Notes: generated by a model from the letters alone, not told the origin. Counted from the first letter of the stretch, positions 26,274 to 61,264 are shown. The stretch is 64,000 nt of DNA from Minisyncoccota bacterium (GCA_040876885.1 JBBDOU010000008.1:42986-106985); one strand, 5' to 3'. Translations and numbers: made by a program.

Positions 26274-27308
26274 TTAAAATGGGTTCTTCGCTCCACGAAC
26301 CTCAAAGTGAAGATGTGATCCTGTTGAACGTCCTGTACTTCCAACATACCCAATAACCTGACCTTGCACGACACGTTGCCCACTATAGACAATTACCGTC
26401 GACATGTGGGAATACAGGGTCTGTGTTCCGTTACCATGACGAATCACGGCATATGTTCCGTACCCACCGTTCCATCCACCATTTCGAACGACAATAACGT
26501 CACCTGTAGCTGAGGCAAGAATTGGAGTTCCTGATGGAGCAGCAAGGTCGACACCGTTATATCCATGAATCCCCTGTGATTTTCGCCCACCAACAATCGG
26601 TCGCATATAGTATCCAGAATATGATGAACTGTTTGAACCGGTGACTACCTGTGTTGTTGCTTTATAGACTGGTGCCTCCACCTCTCCACCTGGCACGGTG
26701 ATAACATCTCCAACGGCAAGAATTACATTTTCCGTAATGTCGTTATATTGTAGAACTTCGTTGAAATCTCCTTTGTATTTCTTAGCAATACTCTGTAGGG
26801 TGTCTCCTTTCTCTACAATGTGCTGTACTCCAGACACAGGAAGAATAACGAGCGTTTGTCCTTCTTTAATAAGAGAACCTTTCTTAATGTCGTTCGCCCA
26901 AATAATTGTACCCGTTGTGACGTTAAACATTTTAGCTATTTGAGAAAGCGAATCTCCTTCACGAACAACATAAATACTAATACGCCCTCCATGCTGTGGG
27001 CGAACCTCAACATCAGCAAGCGTTCCTGTTGGTCCTGTTTCAGAAAGCAGTGCAGAACCGTCTACAACAGTAATATCACCTCCTCCTTTTGCAGGGTTTG
27101 GGTCAACGTTACGAGCAGCTTTTAATACTAGCGCATTTTGAGAATTATATTCTGAATCAACCACACGTGCCGTATCAGATAAAAAAGAGGATATAAAAGA
27201 AACAATCCCCGCATGCGTAGGGGTTGGGGATATAAATAAGAGCGCAATGACAATGCTACATAATGAAAAAACAGCGGTACTGAGCCGTGCATGTTTCTTT
27301 TTTATCAT
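26274..27308 (-). CDS. LysM-LysM-M23 peptidoglycan endopeptidase
   Basis: Signal/TM N-terminus; two LysM motifs (GDSLSQIAKMF..., GDTLQSIAKKY...); M23 HxxxD/HxH region (GIHGYNGVDLAAPSGTP...GSHLHFEV). Confidence 0.85.
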   Translation of the reverse strand: MIKKKHARLSTAVFSLCSIVIALLFISPTPTHAGIVSFISSFLSDTARVVDSEYNSQNALVLKAARNVDPNPAKGGGDITVVDGSALLSETGPTGTLADVEVRPQHGGRISIYVVREGDSLSQIAKMFNVTTGTIIWANDIKKGSLIKEGQTLVILPVSGVQHIVEKGDTLQSIAKKYKGDFNEVLQYNDITENVILAVGDVITVPGGEVEAPVYKATTQVVTGSNSSSYSGYYMRPIVGGRKSQGIHGYNGVDLAAPSGTPILASATGDVIVVRNGGWNGGYGTYAVIRHGNGTQTLYSHMSTVIVYSGQRVVQGQVIGYVGSTGRSTGSHLHFEVRGAKNPF

Positions 27309-30327: not shown

Positions 30328-30678
30328 TTAGATCCCGCCACTTGAACCAACAATCATCATAATAGGACCCGCGCCAATATAAAATTGGCCCAAGAAACAA
30401 AGTCCGGGAGGGCCCGCATTGCCAAGAACCCAACGAGGGACCGATGGGGGACCATATAAATATGTTCGGGTTGCTAGTGTATACATATACTCACCGCCAA
30501 CAGGTGGACCAATAAGCGCAAGGAGTCCCGTGTTACACGGCTTTGTTATTAAGGTTCTACCGCCAAATGGAATCAGCGCATGTGCTTGAAATGGAAGTAA
30601 TAAAATTCCAATAATACATAAAAGAAGCGCCAGTGTAGGTAGTCGTCTTTGTAAAAAAAGAATTACAAAATATCTCAT
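30328..30678 (-). CDS. Small secreted Gly/Pro-rich protein with two Cys and a hydrophobic C-terminus, unknown function
   Basis: Signal peptide ending QAHA; mature about 80 aa; divergent from the T4SS-like cluster. Confidence 0.45.
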   Translation of the reverse strand: MRYFVILFLQRRLPTLALLLCIIGILLLPFQAHALIPFGGRTLITKPCNTGLLALIGPPVGGEYMYTLATRTYLYGPPSVPRWVLGNAGPPGLCFLGQFYIGAGPIMMIVGSSGGI

Positions 30679-30715
30679 ACTAAAAAGTATACCTTCTAAA
30701 TGGTATACTCACCAC

Positions 30716-31453
30716 ATGCATCTTCAGATTAGGCAAATGGGTACGCTTGCAATACTACTTGCGCTCTTTATAGCGGTAACAATTTATTTATTTCCAAGAG
30801 AAGACTCGCCACAAAGCACACAAGGCACCCTAAAAGGTATTTCAGTCTCTAACGCAAAAAAAACAGGTACTCAAACGGGGTATACTTCTCTTTCGTCGAC
30901 TGAGGGAGGTGTGCTCCATACGGGAGGTACGTCTATTTTCAATAAAACAACCCTGCAAGAATTTTTAAATACAAACACAGATGAGCGTACTGCTACAATC
31001 ACCGGAACGGACTCGGGCGAAGAAGAAGTACTGAGCGCATTAAAAGACTATGGGAATAGCGCTGGTGCTATTATAAAAAGTCACCTAAGCGAGAGTCGTG
31101 ACGAGGCAGGTGTACTCGACAAGTTTATAACAACTCCAAAAAATATCGAAGCACAGAACGACTTTAAAGCGCTTCTCAATGACTACCGTGCAGTTGGTCA
31201 CGAACTTAACGCACTTGTACCGCCTACAGTACTCGACATGCACCACAAAAAATTTGCCGACGTCTATATACATATAGGGGACTCGATGGAGCAACTTTTA
31301 TACAGTGCTATCAGTAGTGAAGACGCAGACACATACAACGAAAATATTACCTTATATATTGATGCGTATGTACACGTTGCAGAAACCTTACGTGTGTACG
31401 GGGTGACATTTAACGCAGACGAACCCGGGTCCCTATTCACACTTCCGTTCTAG
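30716..31453 (+). CDS. Membrane-anchored protein, unknown function (first gene of the T4SS-like cluster)
   Basis: N-terminal TM helix, Ser/Thr/Gly-rich linker, globular C-terminal domain. Confidence 0.55.
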   Translation: MHLQIRQMGTLAILLALFIAVTIYLFPREDSPQSTQGTLKGISVSNAKKTGTQTGYTSLSSTEGGVLHTGGTSIFNKTTLQEFLNTNTDERTATITGTDSGEEEVLSALKDYGNSAGAIIKSHLSESRDEAGVLDKFITTPKNIEAQNDFKALLNDYRAVGHELNALVPPTVLDMHHKKFADVYIHIGDSMEQLLYSAISSEDADTYNENITLYIDAYVHVAETLRVYGVTFNADEPGSLFTLPF

Positions 31454-31480
31454 GAATGTACGGCTAAACACTGCTATACT

Positions 31481-32398
31481 GTGGTTATGAACGGGCGTTT
31501 CTTAAAGAAAAACGTTGTACTTGTAGCTGTTGTTACTGGTGCACTACTTATCAGTGCCTCTTTTGTATTAGTAGCGCTAAAACACAAAGGAGCAGTGACG
31601 ACAAAGGGAGTAGCAGTAAATAAAAATCTTGAGCAAATAGTTACCCAGACGGTTTCTGTAGATTCAGACAATGATGGGCTTAAAGACTGGGAGGAAATTC
31701 TTTTTGGGACGGACCCGCAAAACCCAGACTCAGACAATGACGGGATTCTAGACGGACAAGAAGAAGATATTGCACAAACGCCAGGGTCTATAGACAGAGA
31801 GAAAGTAGAAGCGCTTGCACATACTGATAAACTCGCCTTCCAGCTTTTTGAGGGATATATTGACTTGAAACAACGGCGCTATTTAGGAACAAATATTGAA
31901 GAAAATTTTGTCGCTGGACTTGTTGAAGACAGTCTTCCTGAAATTTCTTACACCCAATACTCCTCGAAAGATTTTACAATAGATACAAAGGCCACACCAA
32001 GTGAAAAGGAACGAGTACGTACCTACCGGTCAGCACTTAATGTTGCCTGGAGCCCTTTATTCCTTGTAAAAGAAGACGAGCTCATTACATTTACCCGAAT
32101 CGTAGAGGATGGTGATAAGAAAGGAATAGCGAAACTACAATTTGCAAAAGAAAAGTACGAAGAAGCAATCAAAAACATGCTTCGTGTTTCTGTACCGAGC
32201 GATGCAGTCACACTACACACAGATATACTCAATGGATTTAGTTTTTTTATTGGAGTTCTTGATACAATGATACAAGTAGAAAATGATCCCTTATCTGCAC
32301 TTGTTGCAGTTGAAGGATACGCCGAAGGGGAGGGGCGCATACGGGCATCAATTGAACGCTTCAAGACTTACTTGCTACTAAAAGGAATAACAAAATAA
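31481..32398 (+). CDS. Membrane-anchored protein with thrombospondin-type-3-like Ca-binding repeats
   Basis: N-terminal TM helix; DSDNDGLKDWEE...DPQNPDSDNDGILDGQEED. Confidence 0.55.
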   Translation: MVMNGRFLKKNVVLVAVVTGALLISASFVLVALKHKGAVTTKGVAVNKNLEQIVTQTVSVDSDNDGLKDWEEILFGTDPQNPDSDNDGILDGQEEDIAQTPGSIDREKVEALAHTDKLAFQLFEGYIDLKQRRYLGTNIEENFVAGLVEDSLPEISYTQYSSKDFTIDTKATPSEKERVRTYRSALNVAWSPLFLVKEDELITFTRIVEDGDKKGIAKLQFAKEKYEEAIKNMLRVSVPSDAVTLHTDILNGFSFFIGVLDTMIQVENDPLSALVAVEGYAEGEGRIRASIERFKTYLLLKGITK

Positions 32399-34047
32399 TG
32401 AATACCATTTCTAAAAACATACTCACCCTACTCATAGTGTTTGCGCTTTGTGTTCCTTTTGGTTTATCCTCGACTACCTATACCGCTCACGCTCAATCAA
32501 CGAGTGGGGCAGATGCTGGAGGTAACCCTGATCTTGGAGGGGACGACACTGCTGATGATGCTGCTATATCTTCCGCAGGAGGCATCCTCTCCTGTCTTGC
32601 TGGTGGATATATAGATGGTTTCTTAGGGGCTGGTGCGAGTGCAATTGGACTAGTAGTTCCTGTTAACGATTCTCTGGTAACCTCAAACACCGGAACAATA
32701 AAAAACAAAGATTGTGTTCTTGATGGACTGACGACTGTTGTGCGTGATGTATTAATATCAAGCATGACTCGAAGTATTGTAAATTGGATTAATGGCGGCT
32801 TTGACGGAAACCCAGCATTTATAACCGACCTCGAAGGATTCTTATTAGATGTAGGGGATCAGGTCGTAGGAACATACATCGAAGGTTCAGAGCTTGCCTT
32901 CCTTTGTAGTCCCTTTCAATTAGATGTGCGTATTAGCCTTGCGCTTGACTACTACACCAACGCCCGCGACCGTGTCTCATGTACCTTAACAGGAGTAATC
33001 GAAAACCTTAACGATTCTTTTGATGACCTCTCATCAAAAAACTCATGGGACTCATGGCTTGAGCTTTCGGTAAACCCACACAACAATCCGTACGGATCAT
33101 TTTTGGCTTCAAGACAAGCGATGCGTCAATCCATCGCCTCTGCGCAAAACAACCAACAAAGCATCCTTAATTGGGGTAGTGGATTTCGTTCTTATGAAGT
33201 CTGCGATACTGCTGGAGTACAAGACCCTAATGACAGTGCGAACATCTCCGTGGGGAACTTTAATTGTAGAATTGCGACTCCTGGAGTTGTTATTAACGAA
33301 CAACTCAGCCAAACCTTAGGTTCAGGGTTCAGGCAACTTGAGCTTGCTGATGAAATAAATGAGATTATTGGGGCGCTTCTTGGACAACTCTCAAAACAAG
33401 TTCTCGGCGGTTCTCGATCAGGTCTATCTGGGTTAAGTAGTAGTCGTTATGGGCGACCTTCTTATGTTAATCAGCTCGTGAGCGCTTCTAACGAAAAATC
33501 TGAATCAGAATTCCGTAGCTACGGAACAAGTGTTGTTGACGGGTCAATTAACACAGAAAGTCAACTTATCACGAGTAAAAAAGTGTCACTCGCTCGACTT
33601 AATGCATCAGAAACATTATTAAAATCTCTTGCCGTATGTTATGAAGGGAAACTCTCAACCACACAAAACCCAACACTTACTCCCGAAGAAAGAACTACCG
33701 CAACCGAGGGTATGAACACTGCAAGCTCAACTATTGCTGCGAGCATAACACCACTACAAAAACTTATCACGGATGATATAGCACACGCTGAAAATAATAT
33801 CTCCAAGCTTCTTGTTATTAAAGAGAATCTAAAAAATACAACCTCCCAAGCTGGCGTCGACCGAGTCCTCGCAAACGAACTTGACCCGCTCGTTAAAGAT
33901 AAAATCATCCACTCCCAACCCGATTTTGTTATTGCAACACAACAAAAAGAAGACATCAGTAGTATCACGGACGCAATGAACACGGCAACAAATGCAAACC
34001 TCACGACGTGTTCTGCATTTCCTGTACGGGGGACTAATCAAAACTAA
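32398..34047 (+). CDS. Large secreted protein (549 aa), unknown function; candidate surface or pilus-tip component
   Basis: Signal peptide ending AHAQ; Gly/Asp-rich region; no TM helix; start overlaps the stop of the previous gene. Confidence 0.55.
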   Translation: MNTISKNILTLLIVFALCVPFGLSSTTYTAHAQSTSGADAGGNPDLGGDDTADDAAISSAGGILSCLAGGYIDGFLGAGASAIGLVVPVNDSLVTSNTGTIKNKDCVLDGLTTVVRDVLISSMTRSIVNWINGGFDGNPAFITDLEGFLLDVGDQVVGTYIEGSELAFLCSPFQLDVRISLALDYYTNARDRVSCTLTGVIENLNDSFDDLSSKNSWDSWLELSVNPHNNPYGSFLASRQAMRQSIASAQNNQQSILNWGSGFRSYEVCDTAGVQDPNDSANISVGNFNCRIATPGVVINEQLSQTLGSGFRQLELADEINEIIGALLGQLSKQVLGGSRSGLSGLSSSRYGRPSYVNQLVSASNEKSESEFRSYGTSVVDGSINTESQLITSKKVSLARLNASETLLKSLAVCYEGKLSTTQNPTLTPEERTTATEGMNTASSTIAASITPLQKLITDDIAHAENNISKLLVIKENLKNTTSQAGVDRVLANELDPLVKDKIIHSQPDFVIATQQKEDISSITDAMNTATNANLTTCSAFPVRGTNQN

Positions 34048-34053
34048 CATTTC

Positions 34054-36165
34054 ATGAAACGTATTATCTTTATCAGCCTTATACTCACACTACTCTACGT
34101 ACCAGTATCATTTAACCTTGATACTACGAATAACTTTGAACCTTTAATAGCAAATGCTAACCATAGTGACGAGCAACACCCGGGTATTGTAGGAGAGGAT
34201 ACTTCGCCACAATCAGGATCTCTGACAACAGATAGTAGCGGAGTTACACGAGAGGCATTTAGCCCTATCTCTAATGCATTTAACGAGTTTATGGAGAATG
34301 TTGCGCTTCTCCCAATCTTTATTTCAGGTTTTTTTGTGTATGTGGCAGGGGCACTTTTTGACGTATCAATACTAGAGACAGTTAGTAGACTTGGGGTGCA
34401 TTTCAGCGCTGTGGATGGAATTAATATTGCATGGGGGACACTTCGAGACTTAGCGAACATACTCTTTATATTTGGACTTCTGACAATTGCGATATCCACA
34501 ATCCTGGGCCTATCTGGTTTTGGGTATAAGAAACTACTCGCTCGGCTTATTATTGTCGCACTATTAATAAACTTCAGTCTCTTCTTCACCAAATTTGTGA
34601 TAGACGCTTCAAATATTTTTGCGCTTCAATTCTATCAACAACTTTCTGTACCAGACGCCGATGGTACTCGGAGCATCTCAAATATTTTTAGACACGCACT
34701 TGGACTCGACACACTGTGGAGCACGGAAACTGTACTTAATAGACTTAACCAACTTAACTATAACTCTAGTGGAGGATTCGGCTTAATGTTTCTCTACTCA
34801 ATATTTACTTCAATATTCTTATTTATCACCGCATTTGTATTTATGTTTGGTGCAATTTTGCTTATTGTTCGTGCTGTTGGATTTATACTACTTGCTATCC
34901 TTTCTCCCGTTGCTTTCGCGGCGTACGTTCTACCCACAACTCAGAAGTGGACCGACATGTGGTGGAAAAAACTCTGGGAGTACGCTATTTTTGCGCCAGC
35001 ATTTCTCTTGATGTTGTGGATTACCGCATCCATTATTCCAAGTATTACCGCGACTTTCGCACCAAACGGAGGGGGGTTGCTTGAGGCTATTTCATCAAAT
35101 CCTGAGGAACGCATCGGGAGTGTGAGTATGATACTTAATTTTATTATTTTGATATCACTACTCATTGCTTCAATTGTTATTTCCAATAAACTTTCTATTG
35201 CGGGTTCAGAAAAACTTACCAAAATGGGTAAGAGCCTTGGCAAATTTGGTGCAGGAAAAGCACTCGCACTTCCTTTTGGCCTCACAGCAGCACTTGGCAG
35301 GAATCTTCCGGGACGCGGTCTTAGAGCATTAAGTAACTCACAAGGACTAAAGGATGTTGCTTCTGGTAAACGAAACTTTAAACCATTAGCGGGCGATGGG
35401 GTTTTTGCTAGAGGTGCAAACATAGCAGCTAATAAGATAGCCCAGAAGAGCGCTGAGTATGGGCTAAAAGGAGCACGGGTTGGTGCCGATGCAAACTTTG
35501 ATGCACGCGCCTTCCCTGGAGCTGGAGCTGTTATAAAAAGCACTGGATTAAACCTAGGGAAGCCAAGAAAAGGTGGGTATGAGACTACAATTAAAAAACA
35601 AGTTGAGGACAGGAAGAAATTTGGAGAGTCATTAGGTAACGACTCAGTAACTCAAGATGCGTTAATAAAACCTCTAGAAAAAGAACAAGGAGAAATCAAA
35701 GGACGCAAAAAAGAACAGGAAGGAGAGAAGACCGAAGATCAAAATAGGATAAAAAATCTTAGTCGACAAAAACAAGCGCTCGTACGGGATGGAAAAGAAT
35801 ATTCAAACGAAATGAACGCGCTTGATGTAGAGCTAAACAAAGCAGAATCAAAACTTGCAGACACAGAGAACACGCTGAAGAGAATTGGCGATGAGGAAAA
35901 GAAAATCAAAGAACAGCTTGACGCAGTAAATAATATCGGAAAAGAAAGAGCTAAAAGTTTTGCTCAGATGTTGGCTTCAGAAAAGACTGTTGATACGCTT
36001 TGGTTTAAAGTTCCTAGAAAAAATAAAGAAGCAGGGATTGCAATGATGAAGGGGAAAAGTGACGAAGATAAACTAATAGAAGGCCTTACAAAAAAAATGA
36101 AAAAAGAAAAAAAAGAGAGCGATACAGATGATGACGGGGAATCTTCTGAAAAGAAAGAGAGCTAA
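34054..36165 (+). CDS. VirB6/TrbL-like polytopic membrane protein with a long charged coiled-coil C-terminal tail
   Basis: Signal/TM N-terminus, about 7 TM helices between residues 90 and 370, then 300 aa of K/E-rich coiled coil; topology and position next to VirB3/VirB4-like genes. Confidence 0.5.
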   Translation: MKRIIFISLILTLLYVPVSFNLDTTNNFEPLIANANHSDEQHPGIVGEDTSPQSGSLTTDSSGVTREAFSPISNAFNEFMENVALLPIFISGFFVYVAGALFDVSILETVSRLGVHFSAVDGINIAWGTLRDLANILFIFGLLTIAISTILGLSGFGYKKLLARLIIVALLINFSLFFTKFVIDASNIFALQFYQQLSVPDADGTRSISNIFRHALGLDTLWSTETVLNRLNQLNYNSSGGFGLMFLYSIFTSIFLFITAFVFMFGAILLIVRAVGFILLAILSPVAFAAYVLPTTQKWTDMWWKKLWEYAIFAPAFLLMLWITASIIPSITATFAPNGGGLLEAISSNPEERIGSVSMILNFIILISLLIASIVISNKLSIAGSEKLTKMGKSLGKFGAGKALALPFGLTAALGRNLPGRGLRALSNSQGLKDVASGKRNFKPLAGDGVFARGANIAANKIAQKSAEYGLKGARVGADANFDARAFPGAGAVIKSTGLNLGKPRKGGYETTIKKQVEDRKKFGESLGNDSVTQDALIKPLEKEQGEIKGRKKEQEGEKTEDQNRIKNLSRQKQALVRDGKEYSNEMNALDVELNKAESKLADTENTLKRIGDEEKKIKEQLDAVNNIGKERAKSFAQMLASEKTVDTLWFKVPRKNKEAGIAMMKGKSDEDKLIEGLTKKMKKEKKESDTDDDGESSEKKES

Positions 36166-36177
36166 ACAAACACTATT

Positions 36178-36645
36178 ATGGAACACCATGCACCCACTAT
36201 TCTAGAAAAACAATTTGATAAGCTTCCGAAGCAATTACAGGCCTTTATCAGTTCTGGAAACCTTACACGTACTTTAGAAGATATCGGCAAGGATCATACT
36301 TTAAGTGACCGAGAACAAACCGGGTTAGAAAACACCTCGCTCATGATTCTTTTAGGACTCGAGCCACTCAGTGAACTTAAAAACCACTTAATGCAAAAAT
36401 ACGCATTGACTGAAGAAAAGGCAGAGAGTGTCTCTGATGATTTCTCTGCAAAAGTAATTACCCCGCTGGAACAAGATTTGCGTAATTTCCTAGAAAATGA
36501 ACGCCAAGAGGAAATATCAAACCCTATGGAAGAGTCGACTGTACAACCATTGTTATCTAAAGACGACACCGACAGAGTACGTGCACTCCTTCGAGAAAAT
36601 GCCAAGACAGTAAGTATTAAAAATATTATTGCTAACATTGAATAA
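36178..36645 (+). CDS. Cytoplasmic protein, unknown function (paralog A)
   Basis: 155 aa; shares a KLPxQLQ...H.L...Q...LEN....LLG.E pattern with the next gene. Confidence 0.5.
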   Translation: MEHHAPTILEKQFDKLPKQLQAFISSGNLTRTLEDIGKDHTLSDREQTGLENTSLMILLGLEPLSELKNHLMQKYALTEEKAESVSDDFSAKVITPLEQDLRNFLENERQEEISNPMEESTVQPLLSKDDTDRVRALLRENAKTVSIKNIIANIE

Positions 36646-36646
36646 T

Positions 36647-37159
36647 ATGAACGACGTAAATATTCACACAACACTCAAGGAGCAGTTTAAAAAACTCCCG
36701 CCAAAACTGCAAGAAGCAATCACATCAACAGAAATTGCTGAAAAACTTCGTGCAATAGCTCAAAAACATAGGCTCCATATAGACCAAGGACAGATACTTG
36801 AAAATGAGACTTATATGGTACTTCTTGGGATAGAGCAGGCGGGGGCATATGAAAAAAATCTACAAAAAGAACTTACTATACCAACTGAAGTCGCACAAAA
36901 GATATACACTGATGTGGCAAAAGACATTTTCTTAGTAATACGCGACACATTAAAAGAGGCGACAACTACCGAGAAGCCAACACAAGTGCCTGATCCTGAG
37001 GCCCAAACTGTACACGCCCAGGAAACAAGTCCATTTACAACAAATACTGACACAGCTCACAATAAACTTGAGTCAGTAGTGAGAAAACAAAGTAAAGATT
37101 TTGAGATTTCTCCCAGAAAAACATACACAACAGACCCCTACCGAGAATCGATAGAGTAA
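36647..37159 (+). CDS. Cytoplasmic protein, unknown function (paralog B)
   Basis: Start set at MNDVNIH immediately after the upstream stop; shares the pattern described for paralog A. Confidence 0.5.
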   Translation: MNDVNIHTTLKEQFKKLPPKLQEAITSTEIAEKLRAIAQKHRLHIDQGQILENETYMVLLGIEQAGAYEKNLQKELTIPTEVAQKIYTDVAKDIFLVIRDTLKEATTTEKPTQVPDPEAQTVHAQETSPFTTNTDTAHNKLESVVRKQSKDFEISPRKTYTTDPYRESIE

Positions 37160-37222
37160 AAAGTACTAAGAAAAAGTGTATAGCGCACTTAAATAGGGAG
37201 ACAAATACAGTATAATAAAGAC

Positions 37223-37648
37223 ATGCGCTACCAAGTGCCGCAGTTTATTGATGTAGAAGATAGAATATTTGGCCCACTAACCATCAAGCAATTCGTCTAC
37301 TTGGCTGGAGGTGCTGGTATTTCTTTTGTTTTATGGAGGTTATTTCCTATCATTGTTGCACTTATCATCATTGCTCCGGTAGTTGCGCTCTCTTTAGGGC
37401 TTGCTTTTTATAAAGTAAATGACCGCCCACTAATCACCACAATAGAATATGCGCTTGGGTACCTCTTTGGGAAAAAACTCTACTTATGGGAGACGAGTAA
37501 AAAACTTCCGAAAGAAGCGACAGCAAAAGTAACCAAAGAAAACGAGCTCATCTCAGTACCTAAGCTCTCAGACAGTAAGTTAAAAGACCTCTCATGGAGT
37601 CTCGATATAAAAGAAAATATACACTCTTCAGAAAATAATACTATTTAA
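37223..37648 (+). CDS. VirB3/PrgI-like small membrane protein
   Basis: 141 aa; VPQFIDVEDRIFGPLTIKQFVYLAGGAG followed by a TM helix; directly precedes the VirB4 region. Confidence 0.45.
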   Translation: MRYQVPQFIDVEDRIFGPLTIKQFVYLAGGAGISFVLWRLFPIIVALIIIAPVVALSLGLAFYKVNDRPLITTIEYALGYLFGKKLYLWETSKKLPKEATAKVTKENELISVPKLSDSKLKDLSWSLDIKENIHSSENNTI

Positions 37649-37650
37649 CT

Positions 37651-38310
37651 ATGGCTCAAGCAGACACAAAAGCTTCACAAGATTTTGTTCCCGTTCAGGA
37701 AATACGGGATGGTATTGTGGTGTTGAAAGACGGCTCACTTCGGGGAATTCTGCTTGCATCATCCATAAACTTCGCACTTAAGTCTACCGACGAACAAAAT
37801 GCCGTTGTTTCTCAATTTCAAAATCTTTTGAACTCACTAGAATTTTCAATACAAATATCTATACAGTCACGAGAACTCGACATCAGACCGTACGTGGCGC
37901 TTTTAGAAAAACAGCTCGAAAACAACACTAATGATCTTATGCAAATCCAAATACGAGAGTACATAGAGTTCGTAAAGAATTTTGTTGATGTCTCTAGTAT
38001 CATGACTAAAAATTTCTTTATTGTTGTTCCATACCAAAAACCCGCACTACAGTCGATGGGCACTAACCCTGTTTCAAAATTATTTGGGAAGACAAACACA
38101 GCTCAAGAAGACTCAGCAAATTTTGAAGAGGCTGTTTCACAACTCGAACAAAGAATGTCAGTCGTCGAGCAAGGACTTGCTCGCTCAGGAGTACGAACCC
38201 TTCGATTAGGTACCGAAGAAGTGATAGAGCTTTACTATAAGATTTTCAATCCTGGAGAGCAGGAAAAACCAATTAATCTTAACCAAGAGAGTATAATGCA
38301 ACAACAGTAA
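37651..38310 (+). CDS. Soluble T4SS-associated protein, unknown function
   Basis: 219 aa, no TM helix; translationally coupled between the VirB3-like and VirB4 genes (1-nt gaps). Confidence 0.4.
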   Translation: MAQADTKASQDFVPVQEIRDGIVVLKDGSLRGILLASSINFALKSTDEQNAVVSQFQNLLNSLEFSIQISIQSRELDIRPYVALLEKQLENNTNDLMQIQIREYIEFVKNFVDVSSIMTKNFFIVVPYQKPALQSMGTNPVSKLFGKTNTAQEDSANFEEAVSQLEQRMSVVEQGLARSGVRTLRLGTEEVIELYYKIFNPGEQEKPINLNQESIMQQQ

Positions 38311-38311
38311 T

Positions 38312-40141
38312 ATGGCACTTCTAGACTTTTTCAGAAAAAATAAAAGAGAAGTAAGTAGTGACATCGTTCCTATTCTTCCTGAGGAAATTTATCGAGCAGG
38401 AGCGCTTGAACTTAAAGACATTATCGCTCCCTCGGCGCTAAAGATAACTCCAAAAGAGCTCCACCTAGGGGACAAAATTGCACGTACATTCTTTGTTATA
38501 TCCTACCCAAGATTCTTGAACAGTAGCTGGTTTTCTCCTGTTATTAACCTCGATAAAGTATTCGACATATCTATCACCGTACATCCCATAGATACTGCGG
38601 GAGTCCTCCGTAAATTTCAGAAAAAAGTTGCAGAAATCCAAAGCCAGATAATAAGCAGAGAAGAGAAAGGACTCGTGCGTGACCCAAAGCTTGATACCGC
38701 CCACCAAGACCTTGAACAACTTCGTGAACAGCTCCAGCAAGCACAGGAGAAGATATTTGATGTGGGTCTTTATATAACAATTTATGGAAACTCAGTAGAG
38801 GAATTAGACAAAACAGAATCAGAAATCAAATCTATGCTCGAGTCGAAACTCATTTACCTTAAACCAGCACTCTTCCAACAAGAGCAAGGATTTCTAAGTG
38901 TCCTTCCCTCAGGAACCGATAAGCTTATGGTCCATTCAAAGCTAAACTCAGCACCTCTTTCAAGTATCTTTCCGTTTGTATCTTTCGACTTAACCTCAGA
39001 CAAAGGAATCCTCTACGGAATAAACCGCCACAACTCAAGTCTGGTACTCTTTGACCGATTCTCTCTTGAAAACTATAACTCAGTAACCTTTGCTAAGTCT
39101 GGTTCTGGTAAGTCATATGCAACAAAACTCGAAATCCTTCGTACGCTTATGTTTGACACGGAAGTCATTGTCATCGACCCTGAGCGAGAATATGAATACA
39201 TGGCAGAAGCAACAGGGGGGAGGCACTTTAATATTTCTTTAAGCTCAGAACACCACATCAATCCATTTGATTTACCGACTCCACGAGAAGATGAAAACCC
39301 TTCAGACATATTGCGCTCAAACATTATCACGCTTGTTGGACTCTTCCGTATTATGCTTGGTGGACTCACTCCAGAAGAAGACGCAATAATTGATAGGGCG
39401 ATAACTGAAACGTACGCACTAAAAGACATCACCGCTCAATCAGACTTTAGCAACGTAGAGCCTCCACTTCTTTCTGATTTTGAAATGGTTCTTGGTGGCA
39501 TGGAAGGAAGTGAGTCTCTTGTACAGCGACTCTCTAAATACACCCGAGGAACATGGTCTGGCTTTATCAACCAACCAACCAACGTTGATATCAATAAAAA
39601 ATTCGTCGTGTTCTCTGTTCGAGACATGGAGGACGATCTTAAGCCAGTTGCAATGTACATTGTGACGCACTTTATATGGAATATGGTCCGAAAAGAACTT
39701 AAAAAGAGGCTCCTTGTCATCGACGAGGCGTGGTGGATGATGAAATCAGAAGACACCGCTTCGTTCCTGTTTAGTATTGCTAAGCGTGGTAGGAAGTACT
39801 ACCTGGGACTTGCTACTATCACGCAGGACGTGAGTGACTTCCTAAGCTCACCCTATGGGCTTCCGATGATCAGCAACTCTTCAATACAGATGCTTATGAA
39901 GCAGTCTCCAACCTCAGCTGACCTGGTACAAGAAACCTTTAAACTTAGTGACGAAGAGAAATATCTCCTCCTTGAGTCTGATGTTGGAGAGGGGATATTC
40001 TTTGCGGGACTTAAACATGTCGCTATTAAGGTTATCGCTTCATACACTGAAGACCAGATTATAACTTCAGACCCATCTCAAGTCCTCGCAATACGGAAAA
40101 ATAAAGAAGTTCTGAGACAACAAAAGGGATCCGCAACGTAA
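38312..40141 (+). CDS. virB4: VirB4/TrbE/ConE-family type IV secretion ATPase
   Basis: N-terminal ...YPRFL... domain, Walker A FAKSGSGKSYATK, Walker B LLVIDEAWWMM, C-terminal IATITQ-type motif region. Confidence 0.85.
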   Translation: MALLDFFRKNKREVSSDIVPILPEEIYRAGALELKDIIAPSALKITPKELHLGDKIARTFFVISYPRFLNSSWFSPVINLDKVFDISITVHPIDTAGVLRKFQKKVAEIQSQIISREEKGLVRDPKLDTAHQDLEQLREQLQQAQEKIFDVGLYITIYGNSVEELDKTESEIKSMLESKLIYLKPALFQQEQGFLSVLPSGTDKLMVHSKLNSAPLSSIFPFVSFDLTSDKGILYGINRHNSSLVLFDRFSLENYNSVTFAKSGSGKSYATKLEILRTLMFDTEVIVIDPEREYEYMAEATGGRHFNISLSSEHHINPFDLPTPREDENPSDILRSNIITLVGLFRIMLGGLTPEEDAIIDRAITETYALKDITAQSDFSNVEPPLLSDFEMVLGGMEGSESLVQRLSKYTRGTWSGFINQPTNVDINKKFVVFSVRDMEDDLKPVAMYIVTHFIWNMVRKELKKRLLVIDEAWWMMKSEDTASFLFSIAKRGRKYYLGLATITQDVSDFLSSPYGLPMISNSSIQMLMKQSPTSADLVQETFKLSDEEKYLLLESDVGEGIFFAGLKHVAIKVIASYTEDQIITSDPSQVLAIRKNKEVLRQQKGSAT

Positions 40142-40153
40142 ACACATTTTAGT

Positions 40154-40543
40154 ATGTCTGACACCAAAGGCTTCAACCCAAGAATATCTAATCTCCTAGC
40201 AGTAGTACTTATCACTATTGCTATTTTCGTTGATATCACACAAGCCTTACTGAGCGTTATTGGATTTTTAATCTTGGGAGTTGCATTAAACACACTAATA
40301 TCTGCATGCATGACCATGTTTTTTGGTATAGTATTTATTATGAACGGTGTTTCTTTTTTCAGTTCACGACGACTTGCTGTAACAGGTACAGCGCTCCTTA
40401 TTGAGGCGATACCGCTCCTTAACAATCTTCCTACCTGGACCATGTACACAGTAGTCGCGGTAAAGAACGTACGAAAAGAAGACAAGGAGCGGTGGCTAGA
40501 AAAAAACAGCAGCGCGTACAAAAAAGGAAGCTTCACTCAATAA
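40154..40543 (+). CDS. Small membrane protein (3-4 TM), unknown function
   Basis: 129 aa, hydrophobic, within the cluster. Confidence 0.5.
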   Translation: MSDTKGFNPRISNLLAVVLITIAIFVDITQALLSVIGFLILGVALNTLISACMTMFFGIVFIMNGVSFFSSRRLAVTGTALLIEAIPLLNNLPTWTMYTVVAVKNVRKEDKERWLEKNSSAYKKGSFTQ

Positions 40544-40569
40544 AATAAAACTACAAACGCAATCTAACT

Positions 40570-41598
40570 ATGCTTAAAAAACTTTACAAAAAAACCCTCC
40601 TTTTCATTACCCCACTTCTCTTAGTTGCACCTTTTTTTGTTTCAGCACAGATTATTCCTGATTTTGGAAGTACATTACTGCTTACTATTACACCAACATA
40701 CCCAAGTCCAGAAGAAGGCGTCACTGTTTCTATAGAAAGTTTTTCCGCAGACTTACATAATTCAAATATTTCATGGTTTTTGGATACCAAGCTCGTACAA
40801 GAAGCTGTCGGCATCACCTCTTTTACTTTTACCGCAGGGGCCTTGGGGAGCCCGACAAGAATTGACGTTGTCGCACAAGAGCCAGGAGCTCCACTTTTGA
40901 GCGAAACGGTCTATGTCCGCCCAACAGATATGGATATCCTCTGGCAAGGGGATACATTCACACACCCGCTCTACAGAGGGAAACGTCTCCCCACAACAGG
41001 AAGTGCAATTAACGTTGAAGTTATCCCTCATTTTATAAATGAGTTTGGGAGGAAGTTTGCAACAAGTGAACTGACATACGTATGGAGCGTTGAAGGTAAA
41101 AAACTAACCCACGCGTCCGGACGAGGAGAAAACACAATAACGATAACCCAAAACAAGCCAATAAAAAATATACCCATTGAGATTGAGGTAGCGTCTCCAG
41201 ACGGGCTCATCACAAGAAAAGAATCACTGCAAATACCAATAGAAACCAGCGCGTTACATATTTATGAAAACAACCCACTTCTTGGGATTCTTTTCAATAA
41301 AGCAGTAAACAGTCTATACTCATTAGTAGGGCAAGAAACCAATTTTATAGCCTATCCTTTCTTTATGTCCGCTGTTGATAGAAATGATTCATCCCTTCAG
41401 TACTCGTGGAGTCTTGATGGGAAACCAATCACCTTAGGAGAAGATACAGGAAGTATCACCGTCAGTCACGAAGGAGGGGTGCGCGGAACCGCCTTAATTA
41501 AAGTCGGTGCGCGTAACACTAAAGAAATTTTTCAAAAAAGTGACGTGGAGTTTAGTATAGAGTTTGGTAACAGTCCTTCGTCAGGTTTCAGTTTTTAA
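40570..41598 (+). CDS. Secreted protein, unknown function
   Basis: Signal peptide (LLLVAPFFVSAQ); about 310-aa mature beta-rich domain. Confidence 0.55.
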   Translation: MLKKLYKKTLLFITPLLLVAPFFVSAQIIPDFGSTLLLTITPTYPSPEEGVTVSIESFSADLHNSNISWFLDTKLVQEAVGITSFTFTAGALGSPTRIDVVAQEPGAPLLSETVYVRPTDMDILWQGDTFTHPLYRGKRLPTTGSAINVEVIPHFINEFGRKFATSELTYVWSVEGKKLTHASGRGENTITITQNKPIKNIPIEIEVASPDGLITRKESLQIPIETSALHIYENNPLLGILFNKAVNSLYSLVGQETNFIAYPFFMSAVDRNDSSLQYSWSLDGKPITLGEDTGSITVSHEGGVRGTALIKVGARNTKEIFQKSDVEFSIEFGNSPSSGFSF

Positions 41599-41601
41599 TA
41601 C

Positions 41602-42111
41602 ATGGTAAAAATGCACATCCATAAAAAAACATTTTCAAAAATAGGCCATCTCGCAACCTTTTCTTTTGTGTTTCTTTTATTACCTATACTTGTGTTCGGG
41701 GCAGGTGAAGCATTTGTTCCCCTTACTGATGGAGGGATTCCTGGCGTATCATCTGGTGTTGAGTTCAAAGACTTCTTAAACGCAGTATTTAAGCTCGGCC
41801 TTGCTATTGCAGTGACGCTTGCGGTTATTATGATAACTGTAGGAGGTTTAGAGTACATGACCACAGATTCTGTAAATAATAAGAGTTCCGGGAAAGAAAA
41901 GATACAAAATGCACTTATGGGGCTCCTGATTGCTCTCATGATTTGGATTATTCTCTTTACTATCAACCCAAATCTCCTCAATATTGATTTAAAAATAGGT
42001 ACCGGCAGTGGAGCGCCTACTGATTACGAGTTGGAAGATTATAGTTCAATACCTACGACAAATTTACGTGGAGGTAATGTACTAGACTACGAGGGAGACG
42101 CGTACCCTTAA
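41602..42111 (+). CDS. VirB2/TrbC-like putative pilin
   Basis: Signal peptide, then two hydrophobic helices separated by a short polar loop (LGLAIAVTLAVIMITVGGL ... ALMGLLIALMIWIILFTI); topology-only call. Confidence 0.35.
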   Translation: MVKMHIHKKTFSKIGHLATFSFVFLLLPILVFGAGEAFVPLTDGGIPGVSSGVEFKDFLNAVFKLGLAIAVTLAVIMITVGGLEYMTTDSVNNKSSGKEKIQNALMGLLIALMIWIILFTINPNLLNIDLKIGTGSGAPTDYELEDYSSIPTTNLRGGNVLDYEGDAYP

Positions 42112-42152
42112 AGAATCTTTACGGAGACCTTTTTAATACAGTAAACAAGATT

Positions 42153-43340
42153 ATGACCACTCAAAGAAAAATCCTTACACTTATCATTATTGTTTTTATA
42201 CTTATTATTGGTGGGCTATTCTTTTTGTACCAATCGTTTGTACAAACAGACACAGAGCCCACTGGAAATGGCACTGGGGGTACGGGGAGCGGAGGAAGTA
42301 TACTATTTCCAAATACTGGACAAGGAGAGACATCAGGAATAGGTACCACAACAGGACCGTCTTCAATAGCAACACTACGGCAAATATCAAGTGTTCCAGT
42401 TTCGGGTGCAGTAATATTTACGGACGAGGAGACTGCTGTAATTAGGTACGTTGAACGCTCGTCTGGTCATATATTTGAAACAACCAGCACATCATTGGAG
42501 CTAAATCGCATATCTAATACGACTATACCTCGAATTCAAAGAAGTTTCTGGGCGCCAGACGGTAGTACGGTTATCTTGCAATACTTAGATGAAAATGAAA
42601 CTCTTAAAAGTTTTTATGGAAAGGTGGCACCTGAAACTGGTGCGCTTGAAGGATGGTTTCTTGGAAATAATATCTCTGATGTAGCAGTAGCTCCTGACGG
42701 AGATATGCTCTATGTACAGAAGATTGGTGGTGGAGTGCAGGGGATTATCTCTAATTTTGATGGAACTAATAGCGCTACTATATTTTCATCCACCCAGCGT
42801 GACTGGCGTCCATTGTGGATGGGTAAAGAAGTAACCTTCACTACAAATCCAGCACGAGATATCACTGGGTTTATGTATCAAATACAAAAAGGGGAGTATA
42901 AAAAAATTCTTTCGCGTGATGGGTTGATTACTAATATAAACCCCGATGGTGGAAATATACTCTTCTCGTTAAGTAATTCTAGAGAAACAAATCTCTTTGT
43001 ATACAATCAAAAAACAAAAGAAACTGTCGAGGTCCCTTTTAGAACCTTAGCTGAAAAATGTGCGTGGTCTGGCAACACCGTTGTCTTCTGCGCTTCACCC
43101 CACAGAGTTACAGAAGGGATTGTCCCTGACGACTGGTACAAGGGATCCCTTTCATTTTCTGATGACATTTGGTCATATAACACTGAAACAGACGAAGCAC
43201 AGTTGGTGTATGACGCGCTTTCTAATGAGCAAATATTTGACGCTATAAACCTCCGCATCGACAGCGAAGGAAAAGTACTGCTCTTTACTGATAAAAATAA
43301 CCTAACTCTCTGGGCCCTTTCTCTTAAGGAGCGCCTATAA
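42153..43340 (+). CDS. Membrane-anchored protein with Gly-rich linker and beta-rich ectodomain, unknown function
   Basis: N-terminal TM helix (ILTLIIIVFILIIGGLFFLY); GTGGTGSGGS linker. Confidence 0.5.
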   Translation: MTTQRKILTLIIIVFILIIGGLFFLYQSFVQTDTEPTGNGTGGTGSGGSILFPNTGQGETSGIGTTTGPSSIATLRQISSVPVSGAVIFTDEETAVIRYVERSSGHIFETTSTSLELNRISNTTIPRIQRSFWAPDGSTVILQYLDENETLKSFYGKVAPETGALEGWFLGNNISDVAVAPDGDMLYVQKIGGGVQGIISNFDGTNSATIFSSTQRDWRPLWMGKEVTFTTNPARDITGFMYQIQKGEYKKILSRDGLITNINPDGGNILFSLSNSRETNLFVYNQKTKETVEVPFRTLAEKCAWSGNTVVFCASPHRVTEGIVPDDWYKGSLSFSDDIWSYNTETDEAQLVYDALSNEQIFDAINLRIDSEGKVLLFTDKNNLTLWALSLKERL

Positions 43341-45322: not shown

Positions 45323-46675
45323 GTGGGAATAAAACAACTTTGGGAAAATACACTTGTCGATATTGAACTGAGTATTTCAAAAGCAAACTTTAGTACTTGG
45401 TTTAAAAACACATCTATTCATAAAATAGATTCTGGTGTTGTGTATTTAGGGGTTCCTAATCAATTTGTTAAAGACTGGCTCTCAAATAAGTACCATAAAG
45501 ACATTTTAAAGACACTACGAAGTTTTTCTACAGAGGTGCGCGGTCTTGAATATATTATCTCTAAGGACCAAAAAGGCGCCCTCCATAAAAACCCCACGTC
45601 TGTAAAAGAATTTAACCAAAACTCAGTGGGGGAGCTCCCACTTGATGATTTTTATATTAATAAAAACGATAACTTAAACCCCCGGTATACATTTGATACA
45701 TTTGTAGTGGGGCCTTTCAATCAGCTTGCACACGCGGCAGCTCAGGTTATTACACAAAAACCAGGTATTGTGTACAACCCACTCTTTATTTATGGTTCGA
45801 CGGGACACGGTAAGACCCACCTTATACAATCAGTAGGGAATTATATTAAAAAAGTTAACCCAAATAGAAAAGTATTCTATGTAACCTCTGAACGGTTCGC
45901 GGTTGATTATCTTAATTCAGTTCAGGAAGGGAAAGCAAACACTTTTAAAGAGAAGTACCGACAATATGACGTTCTTATTATGGACGATATACAATTCCTC
46001 TCTGATAAAGAGAAGACCCAAGAGGAACTATTCCATTTATTTAATGCGTTATACGACAACAATAAGCAAATAATTTTTTCTTCTGATAAACACCCTAACT
46101 ACATTCCAGGGCTTGAAGACAGGCTAAAATCACGGTTTAACGCTGGTATGATTGCGGATATCCCTGCACCAGATCATGAGTCACGTATGGCGATTCTGAA
46201 ATCTAAAACTGCACAGAATAATTTTCTACTCCCTGATGACTTAGTTTCGTATATTTCAAGTGAGGTTCAGGGGAATATTAGAGAGTTAGAAGGTGTCTTA
46301 AACTCAATAATTTTTCAATCACAAGTAAAAGGGAGAATCCCCAACCAAACAGAAATTCGGGCGATTATTAAAAACAGCTCTAAACCTAAAAAATCAGTAT
46401 CAGCAAAAGATGTGATTAAAAAGATTGCTGATTTTTATGAAATAAACGAAAACAGTATCTACGAAAAGACTCGAAAAAAAGAAATTGTTAAACCAAGACA
46501 GCTAATTATGTATATCTTGCGAGAAGATTTTGGTGTGTCTTATCCAAGTATTGGAGAAAAATTAGGAGGAAGAGACCACACAACAGTAATACACTCTTGT
46601 GAGAAAATTAAAAACGACCTAAAAACAAACCCGACCCTTGGGCAGGAGATAGACCAAATACGGGCATTGTTATAA
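45323..46675 (+). CDS. dnaA: Chromosomal replication initiator DnaA
   Basis: Walker A GSTGHGKTHL, AAA+ sensor motifs, C-terminal DNA-binding domain. Confidence 0.95.
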   Translation: MGIKQLWENTLVDIELSISKANFSTWFKNTSIHKIDSGVVYLGVPNQFVKDWLSNKYHKDILKTLRSFSTEVRGLEYIISKDQKGALHKNPTSVKEFNQNSVGELPLDDFYINKNDNLNPRYTFDTFVVGPFNQLAHAAAQVITQKPGIVYNPLFIYGSTGHGKTHLIQSVGNYIKKVNPNRKVFYVTSERFAVDYLNSVQEGKANTFKEKYRQYDVLIMDDIQFLSDKEKTQEELFHLFNALYDNNKQIIFSSDKHPNYIPGLEDRLKSRFNAGMIADIPAPDHESRMAILKSKTAQNNFLLPDDLVSYISSEVQGNIRELEGVLNSIIFQSQVKGRIPNQTEIRAIIKNSSKPKKSVSAKDVIKKIADFYEINENSIYEKTRKKEIVKPRQLIMYILREDFGVSYPSIGEKLGGRDHTTVIHSCEKIKNDLKTNPTLGQEIDQIRALL

Positions 46676-46889
46676 ATAAAAACATGTTCATTGACTGTGG
46701 AAAAAAAGTTAATATATAAAAAGTAATCAACAAGAGTATTATGAAAAAAGAAACCTATAAAATAAAATCAACTTTTTATACACACGTTGTTGGTAAATTA
46801 TTTAACAGAATATACTTATTTATAAACATTAAAAATACTTTTCAACATATACACAGTACTAATAGTAATAATAAATTATATATACATAT
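46676..46889. promoter_or_regulatory. AT-rich dnaA-dnaN intergenic region; candidate DNA-unwinding element of oriC
   Basis: About 80% A+T with a further TTATACACA box (46777) and tgtggaaaa. Confidence 0.45.
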
Positions 46890-47993
46890 ATGAAAATAAC
46901 CTGTGAAAAAAAAGATCTATTAAACAGCTTAGTTATTACAGAAAAAATAACTGGTACTAATCCAACACTACCAATCCTTAGTTGTGTGTTATTAATTGTG
47001 AAAGATTCAATTCTTACTGTACGTTCAACAAATCTTGAGCTTGGTATTGAAGTATATATACCAGTCACTTCAGAAGAAGATGGAATAGTTGCTATTCCGG
47101 GTCATATTTTTTATAACACTATACAAAATACACACGATAATTCTATTACTCTTGAAACACAAAAAGATACACTTGTTATTCAAACAAAACATAGTAAAAC
47201 AGTACTTAATACACAAATATATGATGATTTTCCATCATTACCAATAATTCAAAACAACACAACATATACATTAAAAACAGAGAATATTATTAAAGGTATA
47301 GAATCAGTTGTGTATAGTGCGTCTAATTCAACTATTAAACCAGAGCTTTCAAGTGTGTATGTGTATGAACATGATAATAAAATATTTTTTGTTGCAACAG
47401 ACTCTTTTCGATTAGCTGAGAAAACAACACATATTAAAGAAAAAAATACACTTAACCAATCATTTCTACTTCCATTAAGAAACGCATTAGAGGTGGTGAG
47501 AATTTTAAACCAATTACCAGATGATAATATTTTAATTAAAGTAGATAATAACCAAATATCCCTTGAAGGTAAAAATTTATTTATCACATCAAGAATTATT
47601 GATGGTGTATTTCCTGACTATAAACAAATTATTCCTAAAGATTATATTTCAGAGGTAATTGTATTAAAACAGGATTTAGTTAATGTTTTTAAGAAAATAA
47701 GTATTTTTTCTGATAAATTTGGACAGATATCTATCGATATACAACCAAAGAAAAAAAACGTGACCATACATACAAATAACAATACAATAGGGAAAACAAG
47801 TGATGGTATTGATGCTGCGGTGACTGGAGAAGCGTTGGTAATGAGTTTTAATTACCGATATATATACGATTGTCTTACCTCAATACATTCAGACAGTATT
47901 ACGTTACTTTTTACTGGTATTGGTAAACCACTTATTATAAAAGGTGTCTCTGATGAGTCATTTTTGTATCTCGTAATGCCGATGAATAAGTAA
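46890..47993 (+). CDS. dnaN: DNA polymerase III beta sliding clamp
   Basis: 367 aa with three-domain clamp architecture (MKITCEKKDLLNSL..., C-terminal LVMPM); directly after dnaA; about 28% GC. Confidence 0.88.
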   Translation: MKITCEKKDLLNSLVITEKITGTNPTLPILSCVLLIVKDSILTVRSTNLELGIEVYIPVTSEEDGIVAIPGHIFYNTIQNTHDNSITLETQKDTLVIQTKHSKTVLNTQIYDDFPSLPIIQNNTTYTLKTENIIKGIESVVYSASNSTIKPELSSVYVYEHDNKIFFVATDSFRLAEKTTHIKEKNTLNQSFLLPLRNALEVVRILNQLPDDNILIKVDNNQISLEGKNLFITSRIIDGVFPDYKQIIPKDYISEVIVLKQDLVNVFKKISIFSDKFGQISIDIQPKKKNVTIHTNNNTIGKTSDGIDAAVTGEALVMSFNYRYIYDCLTSIHSDSITLLFTGIGKPLIIKGVSDESFLYLVMPMNK

Positions 47994-48013
47994 CATAGAA
48001 AAAGATTCAAAAT

Positions 48014-60286: not shown

Positions 60287-60310
60287 TATCTCGCTTGATA
60301 TACTATTATT

Positions 60311-61190: not shown

Positions 61191-61263
61191 CCGCCCGTAG
61201 CTCAGTTGGTAGAGCAGCTCCCTTTTAAGGAGAATGTCGTAGGTTCAAGTCCTACCGGGCGGA
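61191..61263 (+). tRNA. tRNA-Lys (anticodon TTT)
   Basis: CCGCCCGTAGCTCAGTTGGTAGAGCAGCTCCCTTTTAAGGAGAATGTCGTAGGTTCAAGTCCTACCGGGCGGA; anticodon loop CTTTTAA. Confidence 0.85.
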
Positions 61264-61264
61264 C

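Follow-up and report, generated by a model that had tools for sequence, protein, structure and literature searches.

A type IV secretion-like gene block fixed beside dnaA in a Paceibacteria genome, with its VirB4 ATPase encoded in two pieces

The stretch of DNA analysed here (the window; 64,000 nucleotides (nt) from a Minisyncoccota bacterium, GCA_040876885.1 JBBDOU010000008.1:42986-106985) carries a block of 13 co-directional genes that resembles a type IV secretion system (T4SS). As defined by an open reading frame (ORF) scan and the NCBI gene calls, the block spans positions 30716-43340 on the plus strand, and adjacent genes in it overlap by 1 nt at one extreme and lie 63 nt apart at the other. 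An initial annotation of the same sequence had the 13 co-directional genes begin at 30328; the count is right, but the gene at 30328-30678 is on the minus strand and the block starts with the next one. Its description of the flanks as housekeeping agrees with what we find: a UvrD/PcrA-type helicase and RsmA upstream, and Jag (R3H), YidC, RnpA, RpmH, DnaA and DnaN downstream. The GC content of the block (0.38-0.43) is the same as that of the flanks. We number the genes c01 to c13 in order; their ORFs encode 245, 303/305, 549, 703, 155, 170/176, 141, 219, 609, 129, 342, 166/169 and 395 amino acids (aa). Signal peptides and N-terminal anchors were judged by hydropathy scan only. The features, with transmembrane (TM) segments where these were recognised, are as follows.

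30328..30678, minus: 116-aa small protein with an N-terminal hydrophobic segment, divergent from the block (ORF and NCBI gene call)
30716..31453, plus: c01, 245-aa N-anchored protein of no family; TM-like segment at residues 5-29; no Pfam or NCBIfam match
31487..32398, plus: c02, 303-aa N-anchored protein with Ca-binding TSP3-type DxDxDG repeats and a helical C-terminal domain (Pfam TSP3_bac, E 2.5e-8)
32398..34047, plus: c03, 549-aa secreted orphan; Cys-containing conserved N-domain (W-I-N-x-G-F-x-G-x-P-x-F) and a C-terminal long-helix bundle
34054..36165, plus: c04, 703-aa extended VirB6/TrbL-like polytopic protein, moderately supported (sub-gathering TrbL score, domains of homologues, TrwI profile and structure matches)
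36178..36645, plus: c05, 155-aa cytoplasmic protein, paralogue of c06; no TM segment and no family match
36647..37159, plus: c06, 170-aa cytoplasmic protein, paralogue of c05; conserved C-terminal DPYRE motif
37223..37648, plus: c07, PrgI/VirB3-family small membrane protein (PF12666, E 1.3e-8, above the gathering score)
37651..38310, plus: c08, 219-aa TrsD/TraC-like protein, split-off VirB4 N-terminal domain (NCBIfam N-terminal matches and precomputed PF26593)
38312..40141, plus: c09, VirB4 ATPase of CD1110/MPF-FATA type, C-terminal two-thirds of a canonical VirB4 (Pfam, NCBIfam and PDB profiles)
40154..40543, plus: c10, 129-aa small polytopic membrane protein with TM-like segments and a D-x-x-Q motif in the first; no family match
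40570..41598, plus: c11, 342-aa secreted protein with probable Ig-like repeats (profile match to the Ig-like domains of phage T4 Hoc, E 4.8e-4)
41602..42111, plus: c12, VirB2-like T4SS pilin (PF18895 T4SS_pilin, E 5.6e-7, 30 bits against a gathering score of 26.6)
42153..43340, plus: c13, 395-aa N-anchored protein with a TolB-like beta-propeller (TIGR02800, E 5e-8, partial)

The initial annotation had left most of the components without a recognisable family. That now holds for five of the 13, and eight have at least a hint of fold or family.

Related loci were collected by scanning a genome collection with the VirB4 protein; the best 80 of at least 568 relatives were retained, and every gene of the window was compared with them by tblastn. 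They come from metagenome-assembled genomes (MAGs) labelled Kaiser-, Nomura-, Campbell-, Taylor-, Zambryski-, Adlerbacteria and others. Presence counts out of 53 or 59 refer to the loci with enough flank.

The motor of the block is encoded by c08 and c09. c09 matches P-loop_TraG (E 1.8e-24) as well as AAA_10, DUF87 and TraC_F_IV in Pfam. With a score of 380 (E 2e-113), it also passes the curated cut-off (325) of the NCBIfam equivalog conju_CD1110 (VirB4-like conjugal transfer ATPase, CD1110 family). The VirB4 assignment of the initial annotation thus stands up to the profile search, and the Walker A (KSGSGKS) and Walker B (LLVIDE) motifs are readable in the translation. The best PDB match is the C-terminal domain of Thermoanaerobacter VirB4 (4ag5, E 1.9e-41); R388 TrwK is also matched. 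c09 aligns only to positions 184-733 of the 752 in the CD1110 profile and to residues 286-735 of TrwK. The protein directly 5' of it, c08, separated by 1 nt, matches the N-terminal positions of the same kind of profile: 2-117 of 752 in CD1110, 7-184 of 792 in VirB4_CagE, 102-235 of 894 in VirB4_plasma and 12-144 in TrsD (E 5e-8), all below the curated cut-offs. It also has a precomputed match to PF26593 (TraC-like). A PDB profile search with c08 gave no match, and its identity rests on NCBIfam and Pfam. As c08 accounts for one part of the full-length VirB4 profiles and c09 for the complementary part, we conclude from the translated sequences that VirB4 is encoded here as two pieces, a TrsD-like N-domain and an ATPase (219 + 609 = 828 aa). 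c08 is present in 53/53 loci with a median identity of 60%. c09 is 77-85% identical to the 80 Paceibacteria orthologues, whereas among 4,282 plasmid records the best match does not exceed 35% identity; the nearest plasmid VirB4 proteins are of the CD1110 type, from Firmicutes and Actinobacteria (30-35% identity).

Upstream of c08, the PrgI/VirB3-family protein c07 has a TM hairpin at residues 27-66 by hydropathy and occurs in 53/53 loci (median identity 51%). The family had been named correctly at the outset, but the gene is not directly upstream of that for the VirB4 ATPase, since c08 lies between the two.

c04 is the candidate for the channel component. It scores 22.4 bits against Pfam TrbL (E 1.2e-4), below the gathering score of 25.9, and its close homologues carry PF04610/PF19590 (TrbL matches). 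With a profile built from 109 sequences, the top PDB match is R388 TrwI/VirB6 (E 0.0018). When the AlphaFold model (pLDDT 81.7) is compared with the PDB by Foldseek, TrwI chains of the R388 stalk come first (prob 1.0, TMt 0.44-0.48, E 0.01-0.05). Hydropathy predicts about six or seven TM-like segments between residues 79 and 384, followed by a hydrophilic tail of long helices; with a helical tail of some 300 C-terminal residues, the protein is described as an extended VirB6. It is found in 52/53 loci. Profile and model together give moderate, not strong, support for c04 being a VirB6/TrbL-like protein, in line with the initial annotation, which had recognised a long-tailed polytopic protein of this kind. 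The pilin candidate proposed there was likewise recovered, with c12 above the gathering score of PF18895. c12 has a long leader and two hydrophobic helices (TM pattern 12-42, 57-87 and 100-128 by hydropathy) and is present in 52/59 loci.

The block has the same position and orientation in all 80 related loci. The gene order is nearly invariant: pcrA-rsmA-(116-aa gene)-c02-c03-VirB6-c05/06-PrgI-c08-VirB4-(c10)-c11-pilin/c13-jag-yidC-(rnpA)-dnaA-dnaN. The flanks are also retained, with rsmA upstream in 45/53 loci and yidC and dnaA downstream in 58/59 and 57/59, respectively; the comparison of synteny suggested by the initial annotation therefore finds the block between rsmA and jag/yidC/dnaA throughout. 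As 80 other Paceibacteria genomes carry the block at this position, we regard it as a vertically inherited part of the core genome.

We searched for the genes expected of a mobile element in the window (ORFs of at least 275 aa), in the called genes within 10 kb of VirB4, and in about 9 kb to the left and 5 kb to the right of the window. The sequence past the window ends was taken from contig JBBDUD010000007.1 (GCA_040904045.1, a Candidatus Paceibacterota MAG), in which VirB4 is 100% identical. No relaxase, type IV coupling protein (T4CP; VirD4/TcpA) or element-type integrase was found in this region, including the outer flanks that the initial annotation had singled out for inspection; on these flanks lie housekeeping genes together with a cluster for type IV pili. 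For the window itself, the Pfam scans of the ORFs outside the block and the precomputed annotation around VirB4 likewise show nothing but housekeeping genes. Apart from VirB4, the secretion ATPases in the scans are all PilB-type T2SSE proteins of type IV pili. The only recombinase is a full-length XerC/XerD-type tyrosine recombinase (20583-21521), 9 kb upstream of the block. The claim that VirD4, relaxase and integrase are missing thus holds for the block and the inspected flanks, with the qualification that a recombinase of this type lies beyond the upstream housekeeping genes.

These data bear on whether the block might be an integrated conjugative element (ICE) or the decaying remnant of one, its relaxase, coupling protein and integrase lying outside the inspected region or recently lost. 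The VirB4, PrgI, VirB6 and pilin families do derive from conjugation machinery, and the tyrosine recombinase could be taken for that of an element; however, it is XerC/XerD-like and separated from the block by ComM, an M23 peptidase, PcrA and RsmA. Housekeeping genes abut both ends of the block, nothing element-like lies beyond the window ends, the GC content does not differ from that of the flanks, and the synteny largely refutes the idea. VirB4 is also more conserved than DnaA. In the 29 genomes with all six marker genes, the median identities to the window proteins are 80% for VirB4, 61% for DnaA, 60% for c08, 53% for PcrA, 50% for PrgI, 48% for RsmA, 47% for YidC and 41% for DnaN, and VirB4 exceeds DnaA in 29/29; the VirB4 figure is inflated relative to the others because the 80 loci were ranked by VirB4 similarity. 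We consider an ICE or its remnant extremely improbable. The view of the initial annotation, a chromosomally fixed and non-conjugative T4SS-like apparatus, is the one that the conserved junctions, the GC content and the missing mobility genes favour.

The remaining genes of the block are accessory. c11 and c13 are present in 59/59 loci. Beyond the Hoc match, other immunoglobulin-domain matches of c11 are weak (E 0.14-0.9); from its sequence profile, c11 is probably built of Ig-like beta-sandwich repeats. c13 further matches TolB in the PDB (E 0.008) and, faintly, Tricorn_N. c03, directly 5' of the VirB6-like gene, is found in 49/53 loci. The profile of c02 (36/53 loci) also matches the Ca-binding repeats of Bap and lanmodulin. 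c05 and c06 are paralogues (BLASTP E 1e-14), the family having one or two copies in related genomes, and c06 was detected in 40/53 loci. A counterpart of c10, defined as an ORF of at least 80 aa with at least two TM-like segments between VirB4 and c11, occurs in 43/77 loci, and c10 is a variable accessory gene. c01 is poorly conserved (6/53 loci); a relationship between c01 and c02 as paralogues was ruled out (E 0.45). The divergent 116-aa protein has no match in Pfam or NCBIfam, and its gene is found at the same position in 14/53 loci; whether it belongs to the secretion system is uncertain.

A LysM + Peptidase_M23 wall hydrolase (26274-27308, minus strand) and a ComM/YifB-type Mg-chelatase-like ATPase (24504-25997, plus strand) lie 3-6 kb upstream of the block. 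The peptidase is syntenic in only 7/53 loci and was for this reason not counted in the system; it is probably not a dedicated VirB1 substitute.

Systems of this kind have been described. Wang et al. (2023, Cell, PMC10633639) reported an "apparent T4SS", SEML1_0006-0019, that is indispensable to epibiotic growth in Southlakia epibionticum, a Saccharibacterium. It resembles Gram-positive conjugative systems, includes essential pilins and has no recognisable coupling and relaxase proteins; the tables for SEML1 give the local order VirB6-like, PrgI, hypothetical protein, VirB4 (PMC10633639). Quinonero-Coronel et al. (2025, Microb Genom, PMC12102498) found VirB4 in 2,417 of 3,035 Patescibacteria genomes, as a monophyletic clade nested in the mating-pair formation class MPF-FATA, with TrsD, PrgI/VirB3, VirB6 and VirB2-like pilins near virB4 and relaxases in only 103 genomes. 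The TrsD arrangement, a homologue of the VirB4 N-terminus, is described there for Patescibacteria, as are the genes dnaA, dnaN, rnpA, ksgA and rpmH beside virB4 in Paceibacteria and many VirD4-like genes far from virB4 (PMC12102498). A 2025 review classes these systems as a new T4SS subtype (PMC12857230).

The locus shares the core of the Patescibacteria-clade T4SS (VirB4, TrsD-like protein, PrgI/VirB3, VirB6 and a VirB2-like PF18895 pilin), its local order VirB6...PrgI-TrsD-like-VirB4 and the lack of a linked relaxase or T4CP. The chromosomal position beside dnaA/dnaN/rnpA/ksgA/rpmH, the pattern of the class Paceibacteria, is also found here. It differs in having one pilin gene where Saccharimonadia have an array, and in lacking a peptidase, lysozyme or NTF2-like gene in the block. 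Neither PMC12102498 nor PMC10633639 characterises the accessory genes specific to Paceibacteria (c02, c03, c05/c06, c10, c11 and c13).

With the MPF-FATA conjugative T4SSs of Firmicutes (CTn2 CD1110-type; pCF10 PrgH-PrgI-PrgJ; pGO1 TrsC-TrsD-TrsE), the locus shares a CD1110-type VirB4, a PrgI-family VirB3 and a TrsD-like protein, and both are without the outer-membrane core VirB7/9/10. In contrast to them, its VirB4 is only 30-35% identical, it has no relaxase, T4CP, VirB1-type hydrolase or VirB8-like protein, it has a VirB2-like pilin, which is unusual in Gram-positive systems, and it is fixed in the core genome rather than carried by a mobile element.

The VirB4 model of the Mycoplasma ICE, Mbov_0397, is matched by c08 (E 1.5e-10) and c09 (E 1.1e-79), and the pilin-like and TM models are weakly matched by c12 (E ~5e-4 to 1e-3); all scores are below the curated cut-offs. 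Unlike this locus, the Mycoplasma genes are on mobile elements with a coupling protein and integration functions. The NCBIfam matches of c12, all weak, are to Mycoplasma ICE families only (MMCAP2_0566, the Mbov_0396 TM protein and the Mbov_0395 pilin-like protein), and Mbov_0395 and Mbov_0396 appear, by locus tag, to adjoin the Mycoplasma VirB4. This hints that MPF-FATA systems, usually said to have no pilin-like proteins, may not be wholly without them.

Other T4SSs without a T4CP (Helicobacter pylori ComB, archaeal Ced, Bordetella Ptl and Brucella VirB) are likewise chromosomal, repurposed from conjugation and without coupling protein or relaxase. They belong to other MPF classes with other accessory parts, and no specific homology past the VirB4 ATPase domain was found.

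Taken together, the block is very probably the Paceibacteria version of the Patescibacteria-clade T4SS: a vertically inherited chromosomal descendant of single-membrane (MPF-FATA) conjugation machinery, in which a linked relaxase and coupling protein were lost or were never present. Every element of the interpretation offered in the initial annotation is already in print (PMC10633639; PMC12102498), and the locus, from an ultra-small bacterium, is probably another member. Patescibacteria, also called the candidate phyla radiation (CPR), account for a large part of the diversity of bacteria and spend their lives attached to other microbes; before theirs, no T4SS had been shown to be essential for the bearer's own survival. 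One more example leaves the published picture unchanged. The modest additions, namely the accessory genes conserved across Paceibacteria, the split VirB4 and the probable transcription units described below, are useful for modelling or dissecting the machine.

Several points weigh against this interpretation. No VirB8-like (NTF2) or VirB1-like component was found in any protein of the block with Pfam and NCBIfam, and PDB profile searches of c02, c03, c05/c06, c08, c11 and c13 gave no VirB8-like or VirB1-like match. The VirB6 call leans on sub-threshold scores (E ~1e-3 to 1e-4) and on TM-scores of 0.44-0.48, which leaves it moderate. A T4CP homologue may sit elsewhere in the genome, as the region inspected is the window with about 9 kb on its left and 5 kb on its right, out of a 128-kb contig. 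The conservation of VirB4 is overstated by the ranking of the loci. Essentiality is known for one Saccharibacterium alone.

As a possible mechanism, PrgI/VirB3 (c07) and the extended VirB6-like channel protein (c04) would form a platform at which a hexamer of the split VirB4 docks. ATP use by VirB4 would extract pilin from the membrane, and the pilin would polymerise into a short pilus or a conduit across the wall. The secreted and anchored accessory proteins might supply the wall-spanning or host-contact part. Such a machine would operate without conjugative DNA processing, at the interface between epibiont and host cell. Its role could be the acquisition of host-derived macromolecules through the conduit, which we rank as the most likely single role, though we hold it with rather less than even confidence; export of effectors ranks second and is a weaker candidate.

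The apparatus could instead be specifically a DNA-uptake machine like Helicobacter ComB or crenarchaeal Ced, taking up host or environmental DNA as a source of nucleotides or for transformation. A VirB4-based system without relaxase or T4CP fits the pattern of ComB and Ced, c09 has a weak partial match to CedB (E 4e-11), ComM lies 4 kb upstream of the block, and in PMC12102498 the authors prefer the view that DNA or other macromolecules are taken in. However, the CedB score is 42 against a cut-off of 700, no ComB-type VirB7-10 or CedA homologues are found among the proteins of the block with Pfam and NCBIfam, and ComM is a widespread gene. In S. epibionticum, transformation needs comEC; comEC is dispensable for growth whereas the T4SS is essential, and the essential role is therefore not ComEC-linked uptake. 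We judge DNA uptake unlikely.

The converse is that nothing is imported: the system would either deliver protein effectors to the host bacterium or do no more than build an adhesive pilus. Effector exporters without a T4CP are known (Bordetella Ptl, Brucella VirB), and the pilin together with the surface Ig-like and propeller proteins would suit adhesion. Yet no recognisable effector or toxin gene was found in or beside the block in Pfam and the precomputed annotation, and adhesion could be served by the type IV pili, whose genes form clusters of their own inside the window and close to it. This alternative is somewhat less improbable than DNA uptake, but we doubt it.

Returning to the Patescibacteria-clade T4SS and its accessory genes, a more speculative proposal is that c03, c11, c13, c02, c05/c06 and c10 make up an undescribed wall-spanning and host-contact module that replaces VirB8, VirB1 and the Gram-positive adhesins. 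A conjugation motor would thereby have become a conduit for the import of host macromolecules, and the very strong constraint on the split VirB4 would reflect an indispensable role in feeding. We put this forward tentatively, as an idea with the odds against it.

The transcription of the block was considered from the spacing of -10 boxes to start codons. Boxes of the form TATA[AC]T upstream of ATG in 80+ loci cluster at spacings of 6 (76 cases), 7 (45) and 8 nt (21), compared with about 5 at other spacings. They stand before many genes that are first in their operon; box-to-ATG examples in the window are 30704-30716, 31475-31487, 37211-37223 and 60299-60311 on the plus strand and 18917-18904, 12507-12494 and 10776-10762 on the minus strand. 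Boxes clustered 6-8 nt before ATG imply leaderless mRNAs, and the spacing suggests that genes of these Paceibacteria are normally expressed in this way. A limited full-text literature search found no paper describing leaderless mRNAs for this group. A generic scan for sigma-70 and terminator consensus sequences was uninformative (promoters at chance, terminators ~2 standard deviations above shuffles), and the spacing analysis was used instead.

In the block, c01 has an extended -10 box (TGgTATACT, 30701-30709) 6 nt before its ATG, c02 has TATACT (31475-31480) 6 nt before the ATG at 31487, and c07 has TATAAT (37211-37216), also 6 nt before the ATG, with a similar box in 41/77 loci. A box precedes VirB4 in 2/80 loci and c03 in 0/54. 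Because leaderless-type boxes precede c01, c02 and PrgI, the block probably forms at least three transcription units (c01, c02-c06 and PrgI-c13). Transcription as a single operon, a point that the initial annotation had marked for checking, is thus doubtful, with internal leaderless promoters probable before c02 and PrgI. The 116-aa minus-strand gene has TATACT 7 nt before its ATG. An inverted repeat at 30685-30710 was considered as an operator or terminator and rejected, two divergent GGTATACT -10 boxes being the better explanation; the palindrome is not kept in the relatives inspected, one locus having an unrelated palindrome there and another having one about 130 nt further on.

The cumulative GC skew has its minimum at ~45-48 kb, at dnaA (45323-46675). 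If the origin is at dnaA, the block is transcribed towards it, head-on to replication. The orientation of the block relative to dnaA is the same in every locus examined, and most other plus-strand genes to its left also point towards dnaA. A head-on orientation fits awkwardly with the published suggestion that proximity to the origin serves high expression. The GC content is ~0.30 at 46001-48000 (the dnaA-dnaN intergenic region and dnaN) compared with ~0.41 elsewhere, which fits an AT-rich oriC beside dnaA.

Elsewhere in the window, three ORFs of 283-352 aa have no Pfam match (1935-2786 and 22992-24050, plus strand; 63043-63993, minus strand), the latter two having none in NCBIfam either; those at 1935-2786 and 63043-63993 coincide with called genes without a precomputed Pfam family. 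There are two PilB-type (T2SSE) genes, one in the window (54758-56506, minus strand) and a second ~1-7 kb past its left end (L085 12040-18429), where it is followed by PilC (T2SSF), a CarboxypepD_reg protein and an N_methyl pilin. With two PilB-type loci, the genome has type IV pilus machinery besides the T4SS. Finally, a 276-aa LAGLIDADG_3 homing-endonuclease-like ORF (61265-62095, plus strand) begins on the base after tRNA-Lys(UUU) (61191-61264), and the two may be a mobile or co-transcribed pair.

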